The translations under genes were made by a program, and so were the position numbers. DNA of 64,000 nt from Bacilli bacterium (lineage in GTDB: Bacteria > Bacillota_I > Bacilli_A > RFN20 > CAG-826): positions 29,417 to 93,416 of the forward strand of contig JAKSVF010000001.1 of NCBI GenBank assembly GCA_024408235.1, in the 5' to 3' direction. Below, piece by piece: positions 52,483 through 64,000 of the stretch. The first letter of the stretch is position 1. Every line of letters begins with the position of its first letter. Under the pieces are notes generated by a model, which saw only the letters and a list, made by a program, of their open reading frames with translations, did not search any database and had not been told where the DNA came from.

Positions 52483-53484
52483 ATGGAGAATTTAAAAGAA
52501 CGTGTAACGATTTACCAGGTTGCTCAAGCTGCAGGAGTATCTTTAGCAACAGTATCTCGCGTTATTAACAAGCAGGGCAACGTAACTGAAGCTACGAGAA
52601 CGAAGGTTGAGGAGACAATCAAGCGTTTAGGATATAAGCCTTCAGGCTTAGCTCAGGCTCTTGCTACAAACAGAACAACAAACATCGGTATCGTCATTCC
52701 TAGCGCTAACTATGTTTATATCTCAAGCATGTTGAGCGGTGTCTCTGAGGTCGCTAAGGAAAAAGGGTTTGTTCTTACATTATTTACAACAGGTCATTCA
52801 AGAGAAGATGCAATTGCGATGATTGAAAAGGTCATCGTCTCACACGTAGACGGAGCAATTATCTTTGATGATGAACTTGATGAGGCAGATATCGAGAAGA
52901 TTAACTCCTATTCCGTCCCAACAATCGTTATCAATAAGAAAGTTGTTGGCGAAAGAACAGGATGCGTTAACTTCTCATATACGAACGCGCTCGCGAAGCT
53001 TGTTCAGTCATACTACGAAAACGGTGGCGACACTGAGATGACTTTCATCCATCTTCATAACTGTGGTAGATTGTTGAGCCACTGCGAAAGAAGATTCATT
53101 GCAGCTCACCAGGAAATCGGAAAGCCATATCACATCATGAATGTCGATGACTCTTACACAAGAACGTACCGTGATTTCACCAATTATTTCCAGAATCATA
53201 AAAAAGGCTATTACATCGCTTACCGCGACTCAATTGCAGCAGCCGTTGCAAATGCAGCAACCGATAGTGGACTAAGAATTCCAGAAGACATTCAGGTCGT
53301 TTCACTTGTCGGAACAAAATATGCGCATATCTTGAGACCTACATTAACATCAATCGATTTGGATTGGCAGGAAGTTGGCAAGAGATCGATGTACATGTTA
53401 ATTGATTTGATCAACAGAAACCTTGAAGAAAAGTCTTACAAGTTTGATGCAAATCTCGTCATCAGAAACTCAACAAAACACTAA
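52483..53484 (+). CDS. LacI/GalR-family transcriptional regulator
   Basis: The N-terminal HTH is TIYQVAQAAGVSLATVSRVIN. A periplasmic-binding-protein-like sugar domain follows. Confidence 0.92.
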   Translation: MENLKERVTIYQVAQAAGVSLATVSRVINKQGNVTEATRTKVEETIKRLGYKPSGLAQALATNRTTNIGIVIPSANYVYISSMLSGVSEVAKEKGFVLTLFTTGHSREDAIAMIEKVIVSHVDGAIIFDDELDEADIEKINSYSVPTIVINKKVVGERTGCVNFSYTNALAKLVQSYYENGGDTEMTFIHLHNCGRLLSHCERRFIAAHQEIGKPYHIMNVDDSYTRTYRDFTNYFQNHKKGYYIAYRDSIAAAVANAATDSGLRIPEDIQVVSLVGTKYAHILRPTLTSIDLDWQEVGKRSMYMLIDLINRNLEEKSYKFDANLVIRNSTKH

Positions 53485-53492
53485 CACGAATT

Positions 53493-53517
53493 GACGCGCC
53501 TAACCGACGCGTTTTTC
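53493..53517 (+). terminator. weak candidate terminator after the LacI-family gene
   Basis: A GC-rich 5-6 bp stem (G)ACGCG/CGCGT(T) with a 9-nt loop is followed by TTTTTC. Confidence 0.45.
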
Positions 53518-53533
53518 TTTTATTTATAAACCT

Positions 53534-53562
53534 TTGATATTTATATCGCGTAAGTCTAGAAT
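53534..53562 (+). promoter_or_regulatory. candidate promoter of the GPH-GH31-transaldolase operon
   Basis: TTGATA (53534-53539), a 17-nt spacer and TAGAAT (53557-53562). An AGGAGG SD lies at 53600-53605. Confidence 0.55.
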
Positions 53563-53612
53563 AATAATTAATTAAGCAACTTAACCAATAAATCTAATTA
53601 GGAGGATTTTTT

Positions 53613-55133
53613 ATGGCTGAGCAAACAAAAACAGCGAAGACATCCGGAATCGGGATGAAAGACAAGCTTGGATACGCTTTCGGAGATGTTGGCTCCTTGA
53701 TGGTATTCGGACTTGTTAACACCTTCCTTCAAGTCTTCTACACCGAAACACTCGGTATAACACCAATCTTGGTCATGATTATCATGATCATCGCTCGTGT
53801 ATGGGACGCGATCAACGACCCTCTATGGGGAAGAATCGTCGACAAGGCGCCATGCAAGAGACCTGGAACAAGATATAAGAGATGGCTTGTTTATTTAGCC
53901 CTCCCTCTTGCTTTATCTTCCATCATCATGTTCTTGAATGTGAGAGGCATCTTTGGAGATAACCCTGCACTCACAGTAACATACGCAACCATTTCTTACA
54001 TTCTCTTCGGCATGCTATATACCGGAACAAATATTCCTTATGGCTCAATGGCTTCAGTCATTACAACAGATGATAAGGAAAGAAACGCATTATCAGTCTT
54101 CCGTTCGGTCGGTTCAACTCTCGGCGGATTTGGCCCTATGGCTTTAAGCTTTGTCTCATATGATAAGGTCCAGAAAGTCGTCGAAGGAGTGGCACAGTTC
54201 GATACTGATGGAAATCCAGTCATGGTATCTCAGTTAAATCCAACAAAACTCATCATTGGCGTTGCAATCTTAGCAGTGCTCTGCGTCGTATTCTCAATTC
54301 TCTGCGCAAAGTTCTCAACGGAGCGTGTTGTTACAGAACCATCTAGAGGAGAAACCAAGAAGAAAGGTGAAACCGCTAGAGTTCTCAAGAATCTTCTCAA
54401 GACCCGCTCATTTGTTGTCATCTCAATTGTCGGCATGCTTTTCTTAGCCGCTCAGATGTTCCAGACAACATACAACTCATACGTATTCATGAAATTCTTC
54501 GGCAGTGGTGGTCTTGCTGCTGTTACTCAGGTATGCCAGTACCTTCCAGTAGCAGTCGTCATGTTCCTTGCCGGGAAACTCGTCAAGAAATTTGGCCGTA
54601 AAGAAATCTGCGCTATCGGACTCTTATTTGTCGCTATCTCATTTGGTGTCTTAGCGATCATCCCAACTACAGTCGTTTCAAGAACAATCTTGATGTATCT
54701 CTTCTTCGTGTTCTCACTCTTAGGAGGTATTGGTAACTCCTTTATCTTCTTAATGATATGGGCTCTTGCTAATGACGCGATTGATGATTATTTCATCAAG
54801 TACAGAAGCCATGATGAAGGTACAGCATATTCAATCTTCTCTTTCATGAGAAAACTTGGCCAGACAATCGCAGCTATCATTGTCAACATCTCTCTTATCG
54901 CAATCGGATACGGAGCTGATGGAACAACCAACTTTGCTCCATCTGAAGCTCAGGCTACATCGATGTACTATCAGTCAATCATCATCCCTGCGGTTTTATC
55001 CCTTGCAATGTTCCTCTTACTCATGTTCCTATACCCTCTTGGAAAACAGGCTGTCTTAGACATGCAGGAGAAGAAGAACGCTATTTATGCGGAAGAAGCT
55101 TCAAATGTCGAAAATGAAGCCGTTAGCGAATAA
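53613..55133 (+). CDS. glycoside-pentoside-hexuronide (GPH):cation symporter family transporter
   Basis: About 12 TM segments. The GPH signature is GYAFGDVG...ARVWDAINDPLWGRIVD. The length is 506 aa. Confidence 0.88.
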   Translation: MAEQTKTAKTSGIGMKDKLGYAFGDVGSLMVFGLVNTFLQVFYTETLGITPILVMIIMIIARVWDAINDPLWGRIVDKAPCKRPGTRYKRWLVYLALPLALSSIIMFLNVRGIFGDNPALTVTYATISYILFGMLYTGTNIPYGSMASVITTDDKERNALSVFRSVGSTLGGFGPMALSFVSYDKVQKVVEGVAQFDTDGNPVMVSQLNPTKLIIGVAILAVLCVVFSILCAKFSTERVVTEPSRGETKKKGETARVLKNLLKTRSFVVISIVGMLFLAAQMFQTTYNSYVFMKFFGSGGLAAVTQVCQYLPVAVVMFLAGKLVKKFGRKEICAIGLLFVAISFGVLAIIPTTVVSRTILMYLFFVFSLLGGIGNSFIFLMIWALANDAIDDYFIKYRSHDEGTAYSIFSFMRKLGQTIAAIIVNISLIAIGYGADGTTNFAPSEAQATSMYYQSIIIPAVLSLAMFLLLMFLYPLGKQAVLDMQEKKNAIYAEEASNVENEAVSE

Positions 55134-55135
55134 AA

Positions 55136-57097
55136 ATGAATAAGCAGCAGCTTGACTCACTTTTCATTTCCTCAATCGAAGATGGGGGAATGCGCATTTC
55201 TCTAGCCCAGGGTAAAGCTAAATACAAAATGAGTCGTGGTTCATTCACGACAAAAGACCATATATTTGATAAGCACAACCTCAAGTTCGTTAATAAAGAG
55301 GGGGACAACTTCCTCTTTAGCGACGGCAAGGTTAACTGTGTCATGTCCTTAGAAAAAGGAGAGAACATTAAACTCCGTTTTAAGGCTGACCCAAAATACA
55401 ATCGCTTCATTTTGAAGATCCCTGCATTTGAGAATGAACACATATATGGATGCGGTGAGCAGTATACACACCTTGATCTCAAGGGGAATAAAGTTAAAAT
55501 CTGGGTTTCAGAACACCAACAAGTAATGAAGATCGCCAAGAAGTTCTTAAGAGAGAAACTCTTTGGTGTAAATCCTGATTACAAAGCCCCATACAAGGCT
55601 CACCAAACCTATTATTCTTCACCAGGCTTTATGTCCAGTGAAAACTATTTTGTCTACTGCCATGAAGACGCTTATGGACAAATCGATTTTGAAAAGAACG
55701 AGACTCTAATTAAATTCCGTCAAGTTCCTCAATCGATATCCATACTTACAGGGGATAATCCAATCGATCTTGTTAAGAAAATTACAAAGCTCGTTAATAT
55801 CCAGCCTAAGCTTCCTGACTTTGTGGGTGAAGGCGCAATAATTGCCACCCAAGGCGGAAGCGATGTTATGCTTGAGAAATACGAGGCCTTAAAAGCTAAA
55901 GGCGGAAAAGTATCTGCAATCTGGTGTCAGGACTGGTCTGGACAGATAGTTACAGAATTTGGCTCTCAGGTCTATTGGAACTGGGAAGTTGATAACAATC
56001 TCTATCATGATTTGAAGGAGATCATTGTCCGCTTAAATAATGAGGGAGTTAAATTCCTTGGGTACATCAATACATTCCTAAAAGAAGACACCCCTTTATA
56101 TAAATATGCGGTAGAGCACGATTATATCGTCAAGAAAAAAGACGGTACACCTTACCTCATTCAGTCTACAACATTTAACGCTGGAATAGTTGATCTCACT
56201 TTCCCTGAAGCATATGAATGGTATAAGGGAATCATCAAAACAAACATGATAGGACTTGGCTTATCTGGATGGATGGCTGACTTTGGTGAGTATCTTCCAA
56301 CAGACTCAGTTGTCCATGGGGGCGATCCTGAAAAGCTTCATAACAAATGGCCAACGCTTTGGGCTAAATGCAACTATGACGCCATTAAAGAGTGCGACAT
56401 GGAGGGCAAGATATTTATCTTCTCTCGCGCTGCATATGGTCATACAGTTCAGTATACGAACTCAATGTGGAATGGTGATCAGCACGTTGATTACTCCGAT
56501 GAATATGGGCTTGGTTCAGTCATCCCTGCGACATTATCAATGGCATGCAGCGGAGTTGGCGTGAACCACAGTGATATCGGCGGATACACGACGGTACTTC
56601 ACATGAAGAGAGACGCAGAATTATTTAGAAGATGGTCTGAGATGAATATCTTTACGCCAGTCTTCCGTTGTCACGAAGGAAATAGGCCAAAGGTCAACGT
56701 TCAGTTCGACAGCGAAGAAGTGGTTGATGAATTTATAAAGAACAGCGATATATTTGCCGCCTTAAAACCATATAGAGATGACGTTCTTAAGGAATATTAT
56801 GAGGATGGCATCCCTTGCAATAGACCTCTCTTCTTCCATTTTGATGAAGATGAGTGTTATACGAATCAAAGAGAATTCATGTTTGGAAGCGAACTGGTCG
56901 TCGCTCCTGTCATGCGTAAAAACGTCACCAAGTTGAAAGTCTATTTGCCTAAAGGCGAGTGGATTGGTCTATTTGATGGCAAGACCTACGAAAGTGGTCA
57001 CATTGAAGTCGAGGCTCCTTTAGGAACGATTCCTGCCTTCTATTTAAAGGGAAGTGTTCACGAGAATCTCTTTAGAGATCTTATAAAGGAAAAATAA
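55136..57097 (+). CDS. GH31 alpha-glycosidase of the YihQ (sulfoquinovosidase) clade
   Basis: Blocks shared with E. coli YihQ as recalled are HIYGCGEQ, IWxQDWSG...FG...WNW, GWMADFGEYLPTD (nucleophile Asp382), WAKCNY, MWNGDQ (acid/base Asp448), HSDIGGYTT and TPVFRCHEGNRP. Confidence 0.85.
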   Translation: MNKQQLDSLFISSIEDGGMRISLAQGKAKYKMSRGSFTTKDHIFDKHNLKFVNKEGDNFLFSDGKVNCVMSLEKGENIKLRFKADPKYNRFILKIPAFENEHIYGCGEQYTHLDLKGNKVKIWVSEHQQVMKIAKKFLREKLFGVNPDYKAPYKAHQTYYSSPGFMSSENYFVYCHEDAYGQIDFEKNETLIKFRQVPQSISILTGDNPIDLVKKITKLVNIQPKLPDFVGEGAIIATQGGSDVMLEKYEALKAKGGKVSAIWCQDWSGQIVTEFGSQVYWNWEVDNNLYHDLKEIIVRLNNEGVKFLGYINTFLKEDTPLYKYAVEHDYIVKKKDGTPYLIQSTTFNAGIVDLTFPEAYEWYKGIIKTNMIGLGLSGWMADFGEYLPTDSVVHGGDPEKLHNKWPTLWAKCNYDAIKECDMEGKIFIFSRAAYGHTVQYTNSMWNGDQHVDYSDEYGLGSVIPATLSMACSGVGVNHSDIGGYTTVLHMKRDAELFRRWSEMNIFTPVFRCHEGNRPKVNVQFDSEEVVDEFIKNSDIFAALKPYRDDVLKEYYEDGIPCNRPLFFHFDEDECYTNQREFMFGSELVVAPVMRKNVTKLKVYLPKGEWIGLFDGKTYESGHIEVEAPLGTIPAFYLKGSVHENLFRDLIKEK

Positions 57098-57098
57098 A

Positions 57099-57779
57099 AT
57101 GAAATACTATTTAGATTCAGCAAAGATCGATGAGATCGATTATGCATACAAATATTTGAAGATTGATGGAGTTACCACCAACCCTAAACACATCCAGAAC
57201 AGCGGAAAGCCATTTTTAACCGCGATTAAAGACATTGCGAATTGGCTTGAAGAGAACCATCTCCAAGGCAAGGATGTCTTCCCTGTCTCGGTCGAGATTA
57301 ATCCTCATTTGGACAACCATCTTGAGATGATTGAAGAAGCAAAAAAGATAGCGGCTATATCGGAGAACTTTGTCATAAAGATTCCATGCAACGTTGAAGG
57401 TTGTAAAGCTGCAAAGCTTTTGGAAGACCAAGGCATCAGAACAAACGTAACATTGGTCTTCTCTCCATCTCAAGCTATTCAGGCTGGAAGAATCGGTGCT
57501 ATGTTCGTTTCTCCATTCATCGGATGGAAAGAGTCTTCTGGTGACGATGGACTTAACTACTTACATCAGATTTCAAACATCTATAAGGAGAAGAACTATA
57601 AGACAGAAATCATCTGTGCTGCAGTTCGTTCCGGCAAGCAGATTGCTGAATGTACGGAGATGGGCGCTGATATCATCACAGCAGGACTCTCTGTTTATGA
57701 AGATTCGATCACAGATCCATGGACCGATTTAGGCCTTAAGAGATTCTGTGACGCTTGGGATAACACCGAAGGTAACTAA
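57099..57779 (+). CDS. class-II transaldolase / fructose-6-phosphate-aldolase-family enzyme (226 aa)
   Basis: Shows YLDSAKIDEI...GVTTNP, the Schiff-base Lys context FVIKIPCNVEG, NVTLVFS and FVSPFIGW. Confidence 0.88.
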   Translation: MKYYLDSAKIDEIDYAYKYLKIDGVTTNPKHIQNSGKPFLTAIKDIANWLEENHLQGKDVFPVSVEINPHLDNHLEMIEEAKKIAAISENFVIKIPCNVEGCKAAKLLEDQGIRTNVTLVFSPSQAIQAGRIGAMFVSPFIGWKESSGDDGLNYLHQISNIYKEKNYKTEIICAAVRSGKQIAECTEMGADIITAGLSVYEDSITDPWTDLGLKRFCDAWDNTEGN

Positions 57780-57780
57780 G

Positions 57781-58617
57781 ATGAAAGTTGGTTTTATTGG
57801 ACTTGGCATAATGGGAATGCCAATGGCCACTAATGTTTCTAGAAAATACGATTTAATTGGATATGATGTCATAGCAAAGGAAGCGCCTTTTGCTATTGCT
57901 AGTTCCATAAAGGAAGTTGTAGAGAATTGCGATGTAATCATCTCAATGGTCCCAAAAAATGAACATGTGCAGTCCGTGTATAGCGAGGCGATGCCATTTA
58001 TCAGAAAAGGACAGACTTTCATAGAAATGTCTACGATTTCGCCATCAGTATCTTCCAAGATTGCTCAAGAAGTTGAGAGCAAAGGAGCGGATATGCTCGA
58101 TTGCCCAGTCGTAAAGAGTCAACCAGCCGCAATTAGCGGTACACTTGGCATTTATGTTGGTGGAAAGAAGGATGTCTTTGAATCTGTAAAAGATGTGTTG
58201 TCCTGTATGGGATGCAACATCATATACATGGGCGGACACGGTGCCGGATTAACAATGAAGATTCTTCATAATGCGTTGGTCGGCCAGATTCAAAATGGTG
58301 TCAACGAGGTGATGTCTATCGCTTCAAAATTAGGAATCGATTTGAATGATTTTGTAAAAGCCATTTCCTATGGCGGGGGACAAAACTTCTACATGGATGG
58401 CAAGGCTAAGAACATCATCTCTCAGGACTACCCAACAGCGTTCTCTATCGCGAACATGCATAAGGATGCTCATTTAGCAAAAGACTTACTAAAAGAAAAC
58501 GATCTCTCATATCCGGGAATCGAAAACACCGCTCGAATCTATGACGAAGCGATGGAAATGGGTTTAGGACGTGAAGATTTCTCGGCAACGTACAAGGTTG
58601 TCAACGGAGGTAAATAA
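57781..58617 (+). CDS. NAD(P)-dependent beta-hydroxyacid dehydrogenase (3-hydroxyisobutyrate dehydrogenase / YihU family)
   Basis: The Rossmann N-terminus is MKVGFIGLGIMGMPMATN. The central block is DCPVVKS (catalytic Lys region), followed by a C-terminal all-helical domain. The start lies 2 nt after the transaldolase stop. Confidence 0.85.
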   Translation: MKVGFIGLGIMGMPMATNVSRKYDLIGYDVIAKEAPFAIASSIKEVVENCDVIISMVPKNEHVQSVYSEAMPFIRKGQTFIEMSTISPSVSSKIAQEVESKGADMLDCPVVKSQPAAISGTLGIYVGGKKDVFESVKDVLSCMGCNIIYMGGHGAGLTMKILHNALVGQIQNGVNEVMSIASKLGIDLNDFVKAISYGGGQNFYMDGKAKNIISQDYPTAFSIANMHKDAHLAKDLLKENDLSYPGIENTARIYDEAMEMGLGREDFSATYKVVNGGK

Positions 58618-58619
58618 AT

Positions 58620-59936
58620 ATGAGAAAAGCTAGAATCGGAGTTTGCTGTTTAACAAGAAAAACATATGACTATCAAACGGCATACGCACTATATCAGGAA
58701 AGAACCGCTGAATTAGTAAAGGACACATCTGTTGACTATTGTGTTTATGGCGAAAACGTTATTGAACCGGAAGATGCTGAAAAGGTTATCCACTATTTTG
58801 AACAGCAGGAAATAGACGCTGTCGTCATCGTCTCGGCCACATTCCATCTTGGACATCTCGCTCTCATGATCAACGACGCCTTGAAGAAACCTATCCTCCT
58901 TTGGGGCTTTGATGAACTCCCATATAACGGTGGAAAGATCAGATTGAATGCAGTGTGCGGCGTTAACTTAAATGCTTCTAACCTTTATAAGGCAGGGGTT
59001 GATAATTACTGTGTCACAATCGGCGATACAATCGATGAGAACTGGGTAAAAGCAATCAAAGCTATGGTCGCTATCCACACAACAAAAATTGGAATTGTCG
59101 GTTATCGCGCACAGGGATTCTTCAATGTCGGAGTTGACGAACTTAACCTCTATAAGAACACAGGTTTGCTCGTCAATCATTATGAGATTAGTGACTTATT
59201 CAAAAAACAGGCTGACGATGAAACCGTTGCTCGTGAAATTGAATGCGTAAAGAGAGAGTGGAATGTAGAAGGCATTAATGATAAGCAAGTTGAATTAGTG
59301 GCTAGACTTGTCGCTTCAACTGAGCTTTTCTTAAAAGAAAAAGGAGTCGATGCTCTTGCAATTCGCTGCTGGCCTGAATTCGCTGCAACCTACGGAATCT
59401 CTCCTTGCGCAATGATGTCTATTCTTCAATCCAGAGGAATTCTTTTGGCATGCGAAGGAGATGTTGAAGCCCTTGTTTCGATGATTGCCGTTAAGGCTTT
59501 AGGCGAACCAACACCATTTATGGCGGATTTATCTCAAGTTAACTTTAAAGATAATTACGCTCTTCTCTGGCATTGTGGCGTTGCGCCATGCAATCTTTGG
59601 GACAAGAAGTGCGTAAGATCTCTTGATACATACTTTGCAGGCGGAAAAGGGGTTACCGCAGGATTCGTCCTCAAAGATGGCGACTTCTCAATTTTCCGTA
59701 TCGACACAGCTAGAGGCAAAACAAGAATATTCTATGAAGAAGGCACAGCTGTTCCGATGGAAAAACTCCTCACAGGTACTTTCGCAAAAGTCCATTTCAA
59801 ACACGATGTCAAAGATGTTCTTGATGTTGTAGTTAATACGGGCGTTGCTCATCACGTCGTTATGGGCTATGTCCAATACGAACCGGTCATTAAGATTCTT
59901 GCTAAGTTGACTGGTTGGGAAATCATCAAGTGCTAA
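58620..59936 (+). CDS. L-fucose/L-arabinose isomerase-like family protein (438 aa)
   Basis: The N-terminal region resembles the flavodoxin-like fold of FucI/AraA-like proteins. The central block is ACEGDVEA and HCG follows. A GGAGG SD precedes the start. The assignment is by overall pattern only. Confidence 0.6.
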   Translation: MRKARIGVCCLTRKTYDYQTAYALYQERTAELVKDTSVDYCVYGENVIEPEDAEKVIHYFEQQEIDAVVIVSATFHLGHLALMINDALKKPILLWGFDELPYNGGKIRLNAVCGVNLNASNLYKAGVDNYCVTIGDTIDENWVKAIKAMVAIHTTKIGIVGYRAQGFFNVGVDELNLYKNTGLLVNHYEISDLFKKQADDETVAREIECVKREWNVEGINDKQVELVARLVASTELFLKEKGVDALAIRCWPEFAATYGISPCAMMSILQSRGILLACEGDVEALVSMIAVKALGEPTPFMADLSQVNFKDNYALLWHCGVAPCNLWDKKCVRSLDTYFAGGKGVTAGFVLKDGDFSIFRIDTARGKTRIFYEEGTAVPMEKLLTGTFAKVHFKHDVKDVLDVVVNTGVAHHVVMGYVQYEPVIKILAKLTGWEIIKC

Positions 59937-59954
59937 TTTCATAGGAGAGAGAAC

Positions 59955-60671
59955 GTGCCGGTGTGGTTGAGTAAGGCCCTATTTGTTGTAGTCGTCTTTT
60001 TAACAAACATTATCCAAGCGATAACTGGCTTTGCTGGCACTGTTCTTGCCATGCCTTTTTCCATTCAACTTGTTGGTAAGCCATATGCAAAACCGGTGTT
60101 GAATGCCATAGCATTGCTGGTCTGCATTATTGTTGTAGTACGCAACTTTAAGAAGATTGACTGGAAATGCTTATTAGAGATTATCGTTTTCATGGGTATC
60201 GGTATGGTTGCCGGTTTCTTCCTTGAAAAGTATCTCTACTCGAAATGGTTCCTAAAAATATATGGAATCATTATCGTGTTCATCGCTATTTATTACTTCT
60301 TTGTGGATAATCCAATTAAACTTCCTAAACCCATTGGATGGGTGATCATGTTCCTTGCGGGAATTATCCACATGATATTTGTCTCAGGCGGCCCGCTTCT
60401 AATCATTGCTGCCAAGAATAAAATCAAGGATAAAGAAACCTTCAGAGCGACTTTGTCAATGGTATGGGTGATACTCAACTCATCAATACTCGTCACTGAT
60501 GCGGTAGGCGGGAACTTCTCATTGGATCAACTTTGGATTCTCCTCATTATGATTCCAACAGTCGTTATTTCGATTCTTATCGGGAAGTTTGCCCTTAAGA
60601 AAATGTCTAACAACCTTTTCATGAAATTAACTTGTGTTCTCTTATTTATTTCTGGATTCCTAGTCATATGA
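59955..60671 (+). CDS. TauE/SafE-family anion (sulfite/organosulfonate) exporter-like membrane protein
   Basis: About 7-8 TM segments in 238 aa. The family motif ITGFAGTVLAMPF lies in TM1 and a second repeat contains SGGPLLI. The start is a GTG at 59955, 6 nt after a GGAGAG SD. Confidence 0.7.
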   Translation: MPVWLSKALFVVVVFLTNIIQAITGFAGTVLAMPFSIQLVGKPYAKPVLNAIALLVCIIVVVRNFKKIDWKCLLEIIVFMGIGMVAGFFLEKYLYSKWFLKIYGIIIVFIAIYYFFVDNPIKLPKPIGWVIMFLAGIIHMIFVSGGPLLIIAAKNKIKDKETFRATLSMVWVILNSSILVTDAVGGNFSLDQLWILLIMIPTVVISILIGKFALKKMSNNLFMKLTCVLLFISGFLVI

Positions 60672-61654
60672 TCATAATGAATAACCTCCAAAAATCTATA
60701 ATCAGAATCCTTCAGCAAAAGAAGGAATGCTCAAGAAAAGAGCTCTCTTCTTTGCTGTCGGTTACGCCAGCTGCAATCACCCTTGCAACAGGACCTCTTT
60801 TAGATGGCGGATTCATCGAACAATTGCATGAAGTATCTAGAGAAAAAGCAGGCCGAAAAGAGGTTATGTTATCGGTCAATGCAGATTCATTTTTCGCCAT
60901 TGGAATCGACGTAAATGATGATGGCATTTCACTTGTTAAACTTAATGGTCGTCTTGAAGTTACTCAATTAATTGAGTTATCTACTATTAAAGAACTAATC
61001 GTTGCTTTAGATAGGTTCGATTTATCTCTATGCATCGGCATCTCTATTTCACTTAAATCGTTCTATAGCGTTGAGCATATAAATAACGATGTTCAGACTC
61101 TCCTTAACCATTTAAAAACCATCAACGAAAATGTTACGCTGATCAACAATATTGCTGCCCTTGCTTACGCTTACAAAATGCGTAATCCTCAGGATGAGAG
61201 TTTCGTCGTTATTAAATATGGACCAGGCGTTGGCTCTGCATGTTTTATCAAGAACCATTTGCTCCAGTCTCCTTCAAACCCAACATATGAACTCGGAAAG
61301 GTTTTCCTTAATGATCGCCTGGTTACTATTGAAGAGGCTATCGGATATAAGTCGATCAGCGATTCTAAGCCTGAGGCTCTTGCTCTTTTGAGAACGGATG
61401 AAAACGTTAGAGCGCGAGTGCTGAAAGTTCTCGGCTTTACCATCCATAACGTGAACACTCTTTTGCAATTGGATAAGGTCCTTGTTTCTGGAGACATCTT
61501 CAAAGACGATAGAATCTTCAATGAGCTGTTGGAGAAAATACCAATGACTGATGAGGAGAAGGCAAAAGTAACAAGAATGAGTGACTATGCTGAATTGAAT
61601 AAAGCCAAATCCGCACTGACCGCTCAGTACTTATTCTTTAACGGTGATAAGTAA
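60668..61654 (+). CDS. ROK-family transcriptional regulator (degenerate sugar-kinase domain)
   Basis: The N-terminal winged-helix region is IIRILQQKKECSRKELSSLLSVTPAAITLATGPLLDGGFI. It is followed by an ROK/actin-fold-like domain that lacks the CxCGxxGC zinc motif. The start is 60668 (ATGA overlap with the upstream gene) or 60677 (MNNLQKS). Confidence 0.7.
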   Translation: MIIMNNLQKSIIRILQQKKECSRKELSSLLSVTPAAITLATGPLLDGGFIEQLHEVSREKAGRKEVMLSVNADSFFAIGIDVNDDGISLVKLNGRLEVTQLIELSTIKELIVALDRFDLSLCIGISISLKSFYSVEHINNDVQTLLNHLKTINENVTLINNIAALAYAYKMRNPQDESFVVIKYGPGVGSACFIKNHLLQSPSNPTYELGKVFLNDRLVTIEEAIGYKSISDSKPEALALLRTDENVRARVLKVLGFTIHNVNTLLQLDKVLVSGDIFKDDRIFNELLEKIPMTDEEKAKVTRMSDYAELNKAKSALTAQYLFFNGDK

Positions 61655-61684: not shown

Positions 61685-63349
61685 ATGGAACACACTAATT
61701 GGTACAAGGATGCTGTTATCTACCAGATTTATCCACGTTCATTTTGCGACAGGAATGGAGATGGAGTAGGTGATATACCTGGCATTATTTCAAAACTAGA
61801 TTACTTAAAGGACCTCGGAGTGAACTGCGTATGGCTTTCTCCTGTTTACGATTCGCCACAAGAGGACAACGGTTACGATATCGCTAATTACCGTGATATC
61901 TATAAGCCTTTCGGAACTCTTAAGGACTTTACTATGATGCTCGATGAAATGCATAAAAGGGGCATCCGTTTAGTCATGGATTTGGTCGTTAATCACACAT
62001 CCAGCGAACATGAGTGGTTCAAGAGCGCTATTTCGGACAAGAATTCGCCATACCGTGACTATTACATAATCAGAAAAGGTAAAGGCAAAAATGGAAAGAA
62101 GCCACCTAATAACTGGTCCGGATTCTTTGCTGAATCAACTTGGGAAAGGATTGGCGAGAGTGATGAATGGTATTTACATCTCTTCGCAAAAGGCCAGCCT
62201 GACCTCAACTGGGAAAACCCAAAGGTAAGAGAGGAAGTCAAAGATATCTTGAGATATTGGTTAGATATGGGTGTTGATGGCTTTAGATGCGATGTCATAA
62301 CCCTCATTTCCAAGAAACAGGATTTCAAGTCTAGATTCCCGACCCTCGCTTTATGCGGTAAAGACGCTTTTGTAATGGGTCCAAGACTTCATGAATACCT
62401 ACATGACTTATATAAAGACGTCTATGCGAACTATGATTGCATGACAGTCGGAGAAACGGTTCTTTCAAGTCTCGACGATGCCATTAGTCTTGTATCGCCG
62501 GAAAGAGAAGAACTTGATATGGTGTTCAACTTTGACCATACGGATGTCGATAACCATATGGGCGTTAAGTGGCTTTATAGAAAATTCAAACTCACGAACC
62601 TCAAAAAGGCGGTCCGCAAATGGCAAATCGGTTTAAAAGGCAAGGGCTGGAACTCTCTATTCATCGAAAATCATGACCAAAGAAGGTCAGTAGGGCGTTT
62701 CGGAACTGACGACAAGGAATTCCGCGTCATCTCAAGCAAAATGCTCTCAGCGACCTATTTCTTGCTTCAGGGAACGCCATTCATTTACCAGGGTCAAGAA
62801 CTTGGAATGACAAATGGAGATTTCGAATCAATCGATGATGTTGTAGATGTGGAGGCCCATAACGTTTACAAGCTAGGGCAGTCACTCCCAATACTTAAAC
62901 CGTTCCTTAAAAAGACATTAATGTCTTGCAACAGAGATAATGCAAGAACGCCTGTTCAGTGGGATGACTCACGCTATGCAGGATTCTCAGAAGCCAAGCC
63001 TTGGCTAAAGGTGAATAAGAATAAGAGTTTCATCAATGCAGAGGCAGCGATAAAAGATCCTGACTCAACTTACAATTTCTTCAAGAAGATAATTGAATTC
63101 AGAAAAGGAAATGATGTTATTAAAAACGGTGATTACATCGACCTGCTCCCTAGAAACAATTCCGTCTATGCCTATGTTAGAAAACTGGCTGATAAAGAAG
63201 TGGTTGTTATATCTAATTTCACGAATAAGAGACTCTCTTGCAAAATCCTTAAGGATTATAAGAAATACAATATTGTTTTGACAAATTATGTCGAAAAAGA
63301 AGATGATTATCTCAAACCATATGAGACAAGAGTCTTAATTAATTATTAA
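61685..63349 (+). CDS. GH13 oligo-1,6-glucosidase / alpha-glucosidase
   Basis: Shows WYKDAVIYQIYPRSF, DNGYDIANY, VMDLVVNHTS, GFRCDVI, GETV, FIENHDQ and QGTPFIYQGQELGM. Confidence 0.92.
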   Translation: MEHTNWYKDAVIYQIYPRSFCDRNGDGVGDIPGIISKLDYLKDLGVNCVWLSPVYDSPQEDNGYDIANYRDIYKPFGTLKDFTMMLDEMHKRGIRLVMDLVVNHTSSEHEWFKSAISDKNSPYRDYYIIRKGKGKNGKKPPNNWSGFFAESTWERIGESDEWYLHLFAKGQPDLNWENPKVREEVKDILRYWLDMGVDGFRCDVITLISKKQDFKSRFPTLALCGKDAFVMGPRLHEYLHDLYKDVYANYDCMTVGETVLSSLDDAISLVSPEREELDMVFNFDHTDVDNHMGVKWLYRKFKLTNLKKAVRKWQIGLKGKGWNSLFIENHDQRRSVGRFGTDDKEFRVISSKMLSATYFLLQGTPFIYQGQELGMTNGDFESIDDVVDVEAHNVYKLGQSLPILKPFLKKTLMSCNRDNARTPVQWDDSRYAGFSEAKPWLKVNKNKSFINAEAAIKDPDSTYNFFKKIIEFRKGNDVIKNGDYIDLLPRNNSVYAYVRKLADKEVVVISNFTNKRLSCKILKDYKKYNIVLTNYVEKEDDYLKPYETRVLINY

Positions 63350-63372: not shown

Positions 63373-64000
63373 ATGGCATTACATGATACATATGATGGAA
63401 GCTTGGTTCCTAAAAGAACAAAAGGCTTCTACTGCGGTATTGCTCCGTTTAGAGACGCATGCTACACGCTGGTCTCGATGTTCCTTATCGCATTCATCCA
63501 GTACTCTGGCGTTCTTACTAGAGGACTTGGCGCGGGGGCAACTCAGGCCGAGAAGACAGCGATGTTCGTCGCTGCGTATGGCGTTATTTCCGCATTAGTA
63601 ATCGGATATCGAATCTTCGACGCTTTAAATGATCCATTCATGGGCGTCATCATCGAGAAGATTCACTTCAAATCCGGCAAATATAAACCATGGATTCTCC
63701 TTGGCGGCTTAACTAACACAATCGTTGTTCTCGCTCTATTCTGCGGACCAACAATCTTCCCATGGCTTTCAGGCTGGGCATATGTAGCCTGGTTCGCTGT
63801 TTTCTATCTCCTTTGGGGACTGACATTCACAATGAACGACATCGCTTATTGGGGTATGCTTCCATCCCTAACTTCAGAAGAAAAGCAGAGAACACAGATC
63901 ACAACTCTCATGTCCATCTGCTGTTCGCTTGGACAATTCCTTGTAGCAGGACTTGCTCCAATCCTTGCTTCAAGCATGGGCTATGGAATCTATGTTCCGA
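63373..64000 (+). CDS. second GPH-family sugar:cation symporter, 3'-truncated by the window edge (not in the supplied ORF track)
   Basis: I translated this by hand from the ATG at 63373, which follows AGGAGG at 63360-63365. The product reads MALHDTYDGSLVPKRTKGFYCGIAPFRDACYTL...YRIFDALNDPFMGVIIEK...MNDIAYWGMLPSLTSEEKQR. The frame stays open to nt 64000. Both GPH signatures are present (R.FDA.NDP..G and DI.YW.M.P.LT). Confidence 0.85.
   Translation, partial: MALHDTYDGSLVPKRTKGFYCGIAPFRDACYTLVSMFLIAFIQYSGVLTRGLGAGATQAEKTAMFVAAYGVISALVIGYRIFDALNDPFMGVIIEKIHFKSGKYKPWILLGGLTNTIVVLALFCGPTIFPWLSGWAYVAWFAVFYLLWGLTFTMNDIAYWGMLPSLTSEEKQRTQITTLMSICCSLGQFLVAGLAPILASSMGYGIYVP

Follow-up and report, generated by a model that had tools for sequence, protein, structure and literature searches.

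Sulfoquinovose (SQ) production has been reported at ~10 billion tonnes per year, and in the gut this plant sulfosugar enters a chain of cross-feeding whose last product is hydrogen sulfide. The described systems closest to the locus studied here belong to the sulfoglycolytic transaldolase pathway (sulfo-TAL, or SFT). They are represented by the clusters of Eubacterium (Agathobacter) rectale and Enterococcus gilvus (Frommeyer 2020, PMC7491151; Sharma 2025, PMC11968277) and by the biochemically reconstituted sftATXGIFDE cluster of Bacillus/Priestia aryabhattai-megaterium. SftX, a DUF4867 protein, has been described as conserved in the pathway. In the glycosidases that release SQ, termed sulfoquinovosidases (SQases), the residues R301/W304/Y508 (the Q/E-RWY motif) form a sulfonate-recognition signature that is cited as defining (PMC12780224, PMC8006165). 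A survey of human gut genomes accordingly picked glycosidases by Arg301-Trp304-Tyr508, followed by a BLAST search for the SQ isomerase SftI, and placed SFT in ~0.5% of gut species (PMC8397734). Here, we analyze a seven-gene operon within a 64,000-nt stretch of contig JAKSVF010000001.1 from a Bacilli bacterium (henceforth termed the window). We propose, with a probability of about 0.8, that this operon encodes an SFT pathway of an uncultured, gut-type, Erysipelotrichales-like Bacilli bacterium with 2,3-dihydroxypropanesulfonate (DHPS) as predicted product. Its genes are as follows, with coordinates counted from the first nucleotide of the window:

53613–55133, + strand: GPH:cation symporter, SftA-like, putative importer of SQ or an SQ glycoside (TIGR00792, 235 bits, cut-off 231)
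55136–57097, + strand: YihQ-clade GH31 of the Gln301 sister clade, putative SQase (MCQ2796906.1; PRK10426/NF007746, 698 bits, cut-off 553)
57099–57779, + strand: SftT-type transaldolase of 226 aa, TAL/FSA family (MCQ2796907.1; TAL_FSA, 147 bits; 284 bits to BmSF-TAL, 8bc3)
57781–58617, + strand: SftR-type beta-hydroxyacid dehydrogenase, predicted NAD(P)H-dependent sulfolactaldehyde reductase (NAD_binding_2/11; alternative GTG start at 57748)
58620–59936, + strand: divergent SftI-family aldose-ketose isomerase (FucI-like), putative SQ isomerase (MCQ2796909.1; NCBIfam SftI, 199.9 bits, cut-off 700)
59955–60671, + strand: TauE/SafE-family anion exporter, SftE-like, putative DHPS exporter (Pfam TauE, 83 bits)
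60668–61654, + strand: ROK-like transcriptional regulator with an N-terminal winged helix-turn-helix and a degenerate ROK domain (Pfam ROK, 23.7 bits, weak; MarR/HTH_24)

With the E. rectale and E. gilvus clusters, the window shares a GPH symporter, a GH31 glycosidase, SftT, SftR, a putative SftI-family isomerase, a TauE exporter and the reductive DHPS branch, and a ROK-type regulator is common to the window and E. rectale-like loci. It differs from them in an isomerase of 25–27% identity, in a GH31 that carries Gln301 together with eight coupled changes and a loop insertion, in the lack of SftX/DUF4867, in gene order, and in its Erysipelotrichales-like Bacilli host lineage. The Bacillus/Priestia cluster has the importer family, GH31, SftT (59% identity) and putative SftI family in common with the window; unlike the window, it oxidizes sulfolactaldehyde to sulfolactate with SftD (Aldedh) and contains a Mem_trans-family exporter, a GntR regulator, SftX, and an Arg301 SQase. 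At the level of the glycosidase, homology to YihQ (E. coli), SftG (E. rectale, 6PNR) and SmoI (A. tumefaciens) extends over the full length, with the catalytic Asp pair, Q262/Q288, W304 and Y508 in common, whereas the window enzyme falls into a sister clade with Gln301, fixed changes and a rebuilt 156–185 loop. A further point of comparison is the sulfoglycolytic transketolase (sulfo-TK) pathway, as far as the secondary account of it extends (Liu 2021, via PMC12890257). One such cluster (locus L128) shares the window isomerase subfamily, TauE and the ROK regulator, and also has DUF4867; in contrast to that type, the window contains a transaldolase and a C3 reductase in place of a split transketolase and Fe-dependent alcohol dehydrogenase (Fe-ADH), and DHPS rather than isethionate is expected. 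Judged from these sequence comparisons, the operon appears to depart from known SFT clusters in three ways: a Gln301 sister-clade glycosidase, a deep SftI subfamily, and the loss of SftX.

Enzymes of the predicted pathway

Reference clusters were fetched via their transaldolases and comprised the experimentally validated ones of P. megaterium (sftATXGIFDE, L089) and E. gilvus (L090) as well as an E. rectale-type cluster (L055). The window transaldolase is 63% identical to the E. rectale-type SftT, 59% to that of P. megaterium and 57% to that of E. gilvus, compared to 24% for E. coli FsaA. It scores 284 bits against the 6-deoxy-6-sulfofructose (SF) transaldolase BmSF-TAL (8bc3), 158 bits against T. 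maritima TAL, the ceiling for ordinary TALs, and 93 bits against FSA, and it fails the FSA/TalC equivalog model TIGR00875 (183.5 bits, cut-off 245.95). Lys94 is its Schiff-base lysine, equivalent to Lys89 of BmSF-TAL, and Trp143 replaces FSA Arg134, which we take to be the phosphate-binding residue. The clade signature SPFIGW and the clade-specific insertion EINPHLDN are both present. A check for clustering with ordinary TalC/FSA enzymes thus came out negative, in agreement with the SF-transaldolase type proposed in a first-pass annotation of the same DNA.

The reductase gene directly follows the transaldolase gene in every locus. Its product matches the SftRs of E. gilvus and of the E. rectale-type cluster at 48% and 49% identity, respectively, compared to 28% for the E. 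coli sulfolactaldehyde reductase YihU. HIBADH and tartronate-semialdehyde reductase models give it higher scores than YihU does; since the SftRs of canonical SFT clusters give the same ranking, a test for membership in the YihU clade does not discriminate here. The enzyme, a predicted sulfolactaldehyde reductase, is to be filed under SftR and not under YihU. Of the transport proteins, the TauE exporter shows 38–40% identity to SftE of E. gilvus and of the E. rectale-type cluster, and the GPH symporter has 28–29% identity with the SftA proteins of P. megaterium and E. gilvus, compared to 25% with YihO/YihP.

Missing enzymes also bear on the end product. No aldehyde dehydrogenase (Aldedh) homologue occurs in the whole window, as had been noted earlier in favor of DHPS over sulfolactate. 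Related loci contain no homologues of SF kinase (YihV) or of the SF-1-phosphate aldolase YihT, all operon open reading frames (ORFs) are accounted for, and the ROK protein is repressor-like, which agrees with the earlier argument against a sulfoglycolytic Embden-Meyerhof-Parnas (sulfo-EMP) route. With no aldehyde dehydrogenase, kinase or aldolase, the pathway is predicted to end in DHPS. Since the window lacks a kinase, an aldolase, a transketolase and an aldehyde dehydrogenase, we rejected sulfo-EMP, sulfo-TK and the sulfolactate branch for it.

In the proposed pathway, the GPH symporter would import SQ or an SQ glycoside, e.g., sulfoquinovosyl glycerol, from which the YihQ-clade GH31 would release SQ. 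The SftI-family isomerase would convert SQ to 6-deoxy-6-sulfofructose. SftT, via a Schiff base on Lys94, would then transfer C1–C3 onto glyceraldehyde-3-phosphate to yield fructose-6-phosphate, which would enter glycolysis, and 3-sulfolactaldehyde. Reduction of the latter by the SftR-type enzyme would give DHPS and regenerate NAD(P)+, and the TauE-type exporter would excrete the product. For each of these enzymatic steps, a homologue of the counterpart in validated clusters is present, and the SFT reading first put forward on the gene set is upheld to that extent.

The arrangement of the genes points in the same direction. Among reference genomes, those nearest to the window are a Faecalibacillus-labelled bin (order Erysipelotrichales; locus L007), which is syntenic with the window over all nine genes, and metagenome-assembled genomes (MAGs) of Erysipelotrichaceae. 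Among transaldolase-anchored genome loci, the order GH31, transaldolase, reductase, isomerase, DUF4867 (not in all), TauE and ROK is found in ~35 of the Bacilli clade, whereas E. rectale-like loci contain the same parts with another isomerase class. Metagenome loci anchored on the isomerase (50–57% identity) usually place it beside a YihQ-like GH31, DUF4867 and TauE, and often lack the transaldolase. A check of neighborhood conservation, suggested at the outset, hence returned dozens of loci from genomes and metagenomes, and because the gene order recurs so often, the operon arrangement is not due to chance. In the literature searched, we found no link between Erysipelotrichales and sulfoquinovose.

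Eight contigs with the Bacilli-type operon (L013, L015, L016, L023, L025, L026, L028, L030) carry labels such as Roseburia hominis, Bacteroides uniformis, Parasutterella, Alistipes and Slackia, among others, and belong to a single MAG series ('cleanbin'). Binning or labelling mistakes seem a better explanation for these names than horizontal transfer.

A glycosidase with a presumably remodeled pocket and a remote isomerase

Several observations weigh against the SFT assignment. The functions all derive from homology and gene context, for the window as for every other Gln301 carrier. At position 301 (alignment to E. coli YihQ), the window GH31 has Gln (FGSQVYWNW) where YihQ has Arg (FGKRVMWNW); Arg301 is present in every solved SQase (E. 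coli, E. rectale SftG 6PNR, A. tumefaciens, 8R56), and the field treats it as required for sulfonate recognition. The sole NCBIfam match of the isomerase, to SftI, reaches 199.9 bits where the cut-off is 700, and its identity to validated SftIs (25–27%) is lower than theirs to one another (37–52%). In the reductase, the YihU pocket residues Asn174/Ser178 are His/Val, as they are in all aligned SftR-type reductases. SftX (DUF4867) was found neither in the operon nor elsewhere in the window; it occurs in nearly all related loci and is missing also in L007 and L034. Lastly, SF transaldolases are reported to bind the sulfonate through an Arg-Trp-Arg triad, which could not be assigned to particular residues.

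By overall sequence, the window glycosidase falls within the YihQ lineage of GH31. It scores 446–515 bits over its full length against all solved SQases; its best six matches in the PDB are all SQases or close homologues, after which scores fall to 133 bits; and it keeps the nucleophile D405, the acid/base D472, Q262, Q288, W304 and Y508. Gln301 is also widespread: 54 of the 60 GH31s that adjoin SftT-like transaldolases in reference genomes carry it, Butyrivibrio, Lachnospiraceae, Oscillospiraceae and Spirochaetia among the hosts of such SFT clusters. Among the nearest 150 representatives of GH31 clusters at 50% identity, 70 have Gln301 and 40 have R-W-Y. These counts rule out a sequencing error or private mutation.

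In a distance tree, the SFT-associated Gln-type GH31s are monophyletic (92/100) and sister to the validated Arg-type enzymes (100/100); SftG of P. megaterium and E. gilvus likewise has Arg301. The two clades differ without exception at nine positions (T/S150V, Q/P153H, N/D158K, R301Q, Y337F, G368T, E369T, C/G372A and S/N474H), the loop at 156–185 is rebuilt with a basic insertion in the Gln301 clade, and the coupling between positions 301 and 368 persists across the wider radiation. Charged residues were both lost (R301, E369, D158) and gained (K158, H153, H474), from which we infer a pocket that is remodeled yet still cationic. Two further pocket variants of YihQ-like GH31s were seen in metagenome loci. 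One combines Arg301 with Asp368 and Phe508 (QQKRL[IL]W...D[ST]...F; L107, L117, L137, L145, L148, L159) and directly follows a window-type isomerase, with a transaldolase also present in 5 of these 6 loci; the other combines Gln301 with Pro368 (L121, L122, L162, L165).

For the isomerase, a PDB sequence search returned no match. An AlphaFold2 model (pLDDT 82, pTM 0.86) searched with Foldseek aligned to L-arabinose isomerases with a TM-score of 0.82 and to L-fucose isomerases with ~0.73, and the predicted fold is thus of the FucI/AraA type. Validated SftIs have the same catalytic core (E279, D281, D303, W317-H318, H412, GG[KR][IL]RLN and RCWP); its order and spacing presumably match Glu337/Asp361/His528 of FucI. 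Scores against the SftI model fall into three tiers, with ~420 bits for the Lachnospiraceae type and 180–200 for the window type, and presumably only the Bacillus type is covered by the cut-off of 700. The 1401 homologues found all come from uncultured bacteria and bear generic annotation.

Gene context links this subfamily to sulfoglycolysis partners. In 12 metagenome loci, window-type isomerases lie beside canonical R301/G368/E369 SQases, and the one of the 12 that we annotated, L128, is a complete sulfo-TK cluster in which the isomerase (55% identity to that of the window) accompanies a split transketolase, Fe-ADH, TauE, DUF4867, a ROK regulator, an ABC importer and an Arg-type SQase. Conversely, the Gln301 glycosidase shares clusters with Lachnospiraceae-type SftI in Butyrivibrio (e.g., Butyrivibrio sp. 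FCS014, L063) and others. Each atypical part is independently linked to canonical sulfoglycolysis partners, which we regard as the best reason to expect sulfosugar substrates for both. The same distribution bears on the suggestion of an undescribed variant in this lineage: the glycosidase and isomerase are indeed atypical, and neither is lineage-specific, given Gln301 in Butyrivibrio, Lachnospiraceae, Oscillospiraceae and Spirochaetia and the isomerase in at least one sulfo-TK cluster.

Other occurrences of the isomerase were recorded alongside. In the complete genome of Caloramator sp. mosi_1 (L047), an SFT-like cluster appears fragmented, with the isomerase in 3 ORFs, GH31 in 2 and TauE in 2, which points to pseudogenization or assembly frameshift errors. 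Planctomycetota, other Bacillota and environmental contigs also contain a window-type isomerase in a minimal pair with an SF-TAL-type transaldolase (genome loci L049, L052, L060, L081, L086; metagenome loci L101, L104, L134, L155). No YihQ-like GH31 was detected in the fetched flanks of these loci and the exporter usually went undetected; their hosts may take up free SQ or use an unrecognized SQase. The name SqvD is used inconsistently in this field, for the B. megaterium DUF4867 protein (PMC11968277, methods) and for an SQ isomerase (review, PMC12890257).

Competing readings

The presumed remodeling of the pocket raises the question of what the glycosidase cleaves. The sulfo-TAL core might act on free SQ as proposed, with a Gln301 GH31 that differs from classical sulfoquinovosyl-glycerol hydrolases and takes a different glycoside, for example SQ with another aglycone, an acylated or lyso form of the sulfolipid, or another C6-modified alpha-glucoside whose sugar enters the same enzymes. 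Loss of R301, the fully rebuilt loop with its basic insertion, and the changes at 368/369 and at the acid/base neighbor (N/S474H) in every member of the Gln301 clade would all suit such a shift; reciprocal monophyly of the Gln- and Arg-type clades fits a functional split, and the additional pocket variants (R/D368/F508 and Q/P368) stand beside the same isomerase. However, the Gln301 enzyme is the only YihQ-like glycosidase in its clusters. Second GH31s, which occur in some related loci and could have supplied a canonical SQase, were rejected, being 23–30% identical, of another subfamily and absent from the window. Furthermore, the two remaining sulfonate contacts, W304 and Y508, are invariant, the coordinated changes conserve positive charge through the gain of K158, H153 and H474, and the downstream enzymes are orthologues of SQ-pathway enzymes. 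We consider a change of glycoside unlikely on balance.

A non-sulfonated sugar could in principle pass through the same chemistry: an alpha-glucuronide would yield tartronate semialdehyde and then glycerate, and a quinovoside would yield lactaldehyde and then propanediol. The HIBADH/tartronate-semialdehyde-first ranking of the reductase, a glycosidase lacking the sulfonate-binding Arg and an isomerase remote from validated SftI are what one would expect in that case, although the SftRs of canonical clusters rank identically, and SftX in relatives together with an isomerase subfamily found next to RWY SQases and in a sulfo-TK cluster speaks for a sulfosugar. Close orthology of the transaldolase to validated SF transaldolases, and a dedicated TauE exporter that suits a dead-end sulfonate and not glycerate or propanediol, led us to reject both the glucuronide and the quinovoside, which we regard as very improbable substrates. 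Least credible of all, to the point of being nearly negligible, is an ordinary alpha-glucoside operon with a housekeeping FSA/TalC-type aldolase and a coincidental likeness to sulfoglycolysis. The window proteins are publicly annotated in just such generic terms (alpha-glucosidase, transaldolase, fucose isomerase), and the operon is directly followed by genes for a GH13 alpha-glucosidase and a second GPH transporter; yet the transaldolase falls short of the FSA/TalC cut-off and carries Trp at the position of the phosphate-binding Arg, and the seven-gene arrangement recurs across phyla with SFT hallmarks. An SFT pathway that starts from SQ or its glycoside thus remains our preferred reading.

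Transcription units, regulators and wider distribution

The ORF map places the seven tightly spaced, co-directional genes at the coordinates first assigned to them (53613–61654), and Pfam and NCBIfam profile searches upheld all family assignments. Of the spacers, first given as 0–20 nt or overlaps, the tight packing stands and two start sites do not, giving revised values of 2, 1, 1, 2, 18 and -4 nt. The reductase most likely starts at ATG 57781 (MKVGFIGLG) rather than GTG 57748, because SftR homologues align exactly from that residue, and the most probable start of the ROK-like gene is ATG 60668, in an ATGA overlap with the TauE stop codon, rather than TTG 60632. The upstream region contains these features:

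52483–53484, + strand: lacI, LacI-family regulator (Pfam LacI and Peripla_BP)
53494–53523, + strand: intrinsic terminator of lacI, ACGCG...CGCGT stem (hairpin 53494–53512) followed by a T-run
53534–53562, + strand: operon promoter of sigma-70 type, TTGATA-17-TAGAAT (10/12 consensus matches)
53570–53586, + strand: candidate operator, imperfect palindrome AATTAAG-caa-CTTAAcc (within a 35-nt block 100% identical in L007)

The promoter predicted behind lacI was located as listed. Its -10 box and the next 35 nt are identical (100%) in the syntenic L007, where the -35 box is not conserved, and promoter-like sites in the region are no commoner than in shuffled sequence. The palindrome occurs once within the whole window, and neither intergenic region contains inverted repeats of at least 12 nt. 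The operon had been described as LacI-headed, and a lacI gene does lie upstream of it. However, lacI ends in a terminator hairpin whose stem is kept in L007 via compensatory changes (ACGCATG...CATGCGT), and is therefore a transcription unit of its own rather than the operon's leading gene.

Among 80 loci, lacI is syntenic in L007 only (92% identity), and its control of the operon, suggested by adjacency, is a matter of perhaps. The ROK-like protein, by contrast, is the widely conserved regulator of related clusters: a ROK-like gene lies downstream of TauE in most Bacilli-clade loci, and the PDB relatives of the window protein are only the repressors Mlc, NagC-like and XylR, so that it is repressor-like and not kinase-like. 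The operon is probably controlled by this protein and perhaps by the adjacent LacI too.

On the same strand, 30 nt after the ROK-like gene, a GH13 alpha-glucosidase gene (61685–63349) follows with no terminator-like site in the gap; it is syntenic in L007 (86% identity) and may be co-transcribed with the operon. Its product scores above the cut-off of the TreC-like subfamily PRK10933 (581 bits, cut-off 535) and below that of the TreC equivalog (643 vs 799). TreC-type enzymes recognize a C6 phosphate, and the GH13 enzyme could conceivably act on C6-anionic glucosides. Near 63595, another GPH-type transporter gene starts, which runs to the window end.

Taken by sequence, the window operon is one of a large, uncharacterized family of clusters that fail the Arg301 signature, carry an isomerase with ~25% identity to SftI, and occur under generic annotation in many rumen and gut MAGs. 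The motif-based survey of gut genomes may have missed clusters of this kind, and in a rumen yihQ amplicon study codon 301 was not covered and no Bacilli were reported. We see an even chance that the Gln301 clade represents a second, structurally distinct solution to sulfosugar binding, with Gln301, Lys158, His153 and His474 as candidate residues, and that together with the divergent SftI it marks a large, unrecognized population of SQ fermenters in rumen and gut that RWY and SftI-BLAST screens overlook. If so, this population would span Erysipelotrichales-like Bacilli, Butyrivibrio, Oscillospiraceae and Spirochaetia, and the reported rarity of SFT in gut species (0.5%) would be an underestimate. 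In a bolder form, the natural substrate of the Gln301 clade may differ from sulfoquinovosyl glycerol. Were these clusters active, herbivore and human guts would harbor a greater diversity of DHPS producers than so far assumed, the transaldolase, recognizable by its Trp signature, would make a better marker gene than yihQ motifs, and the Gln301 enzymes would constitute a natural experiment on sulfonate recognition without arginine.

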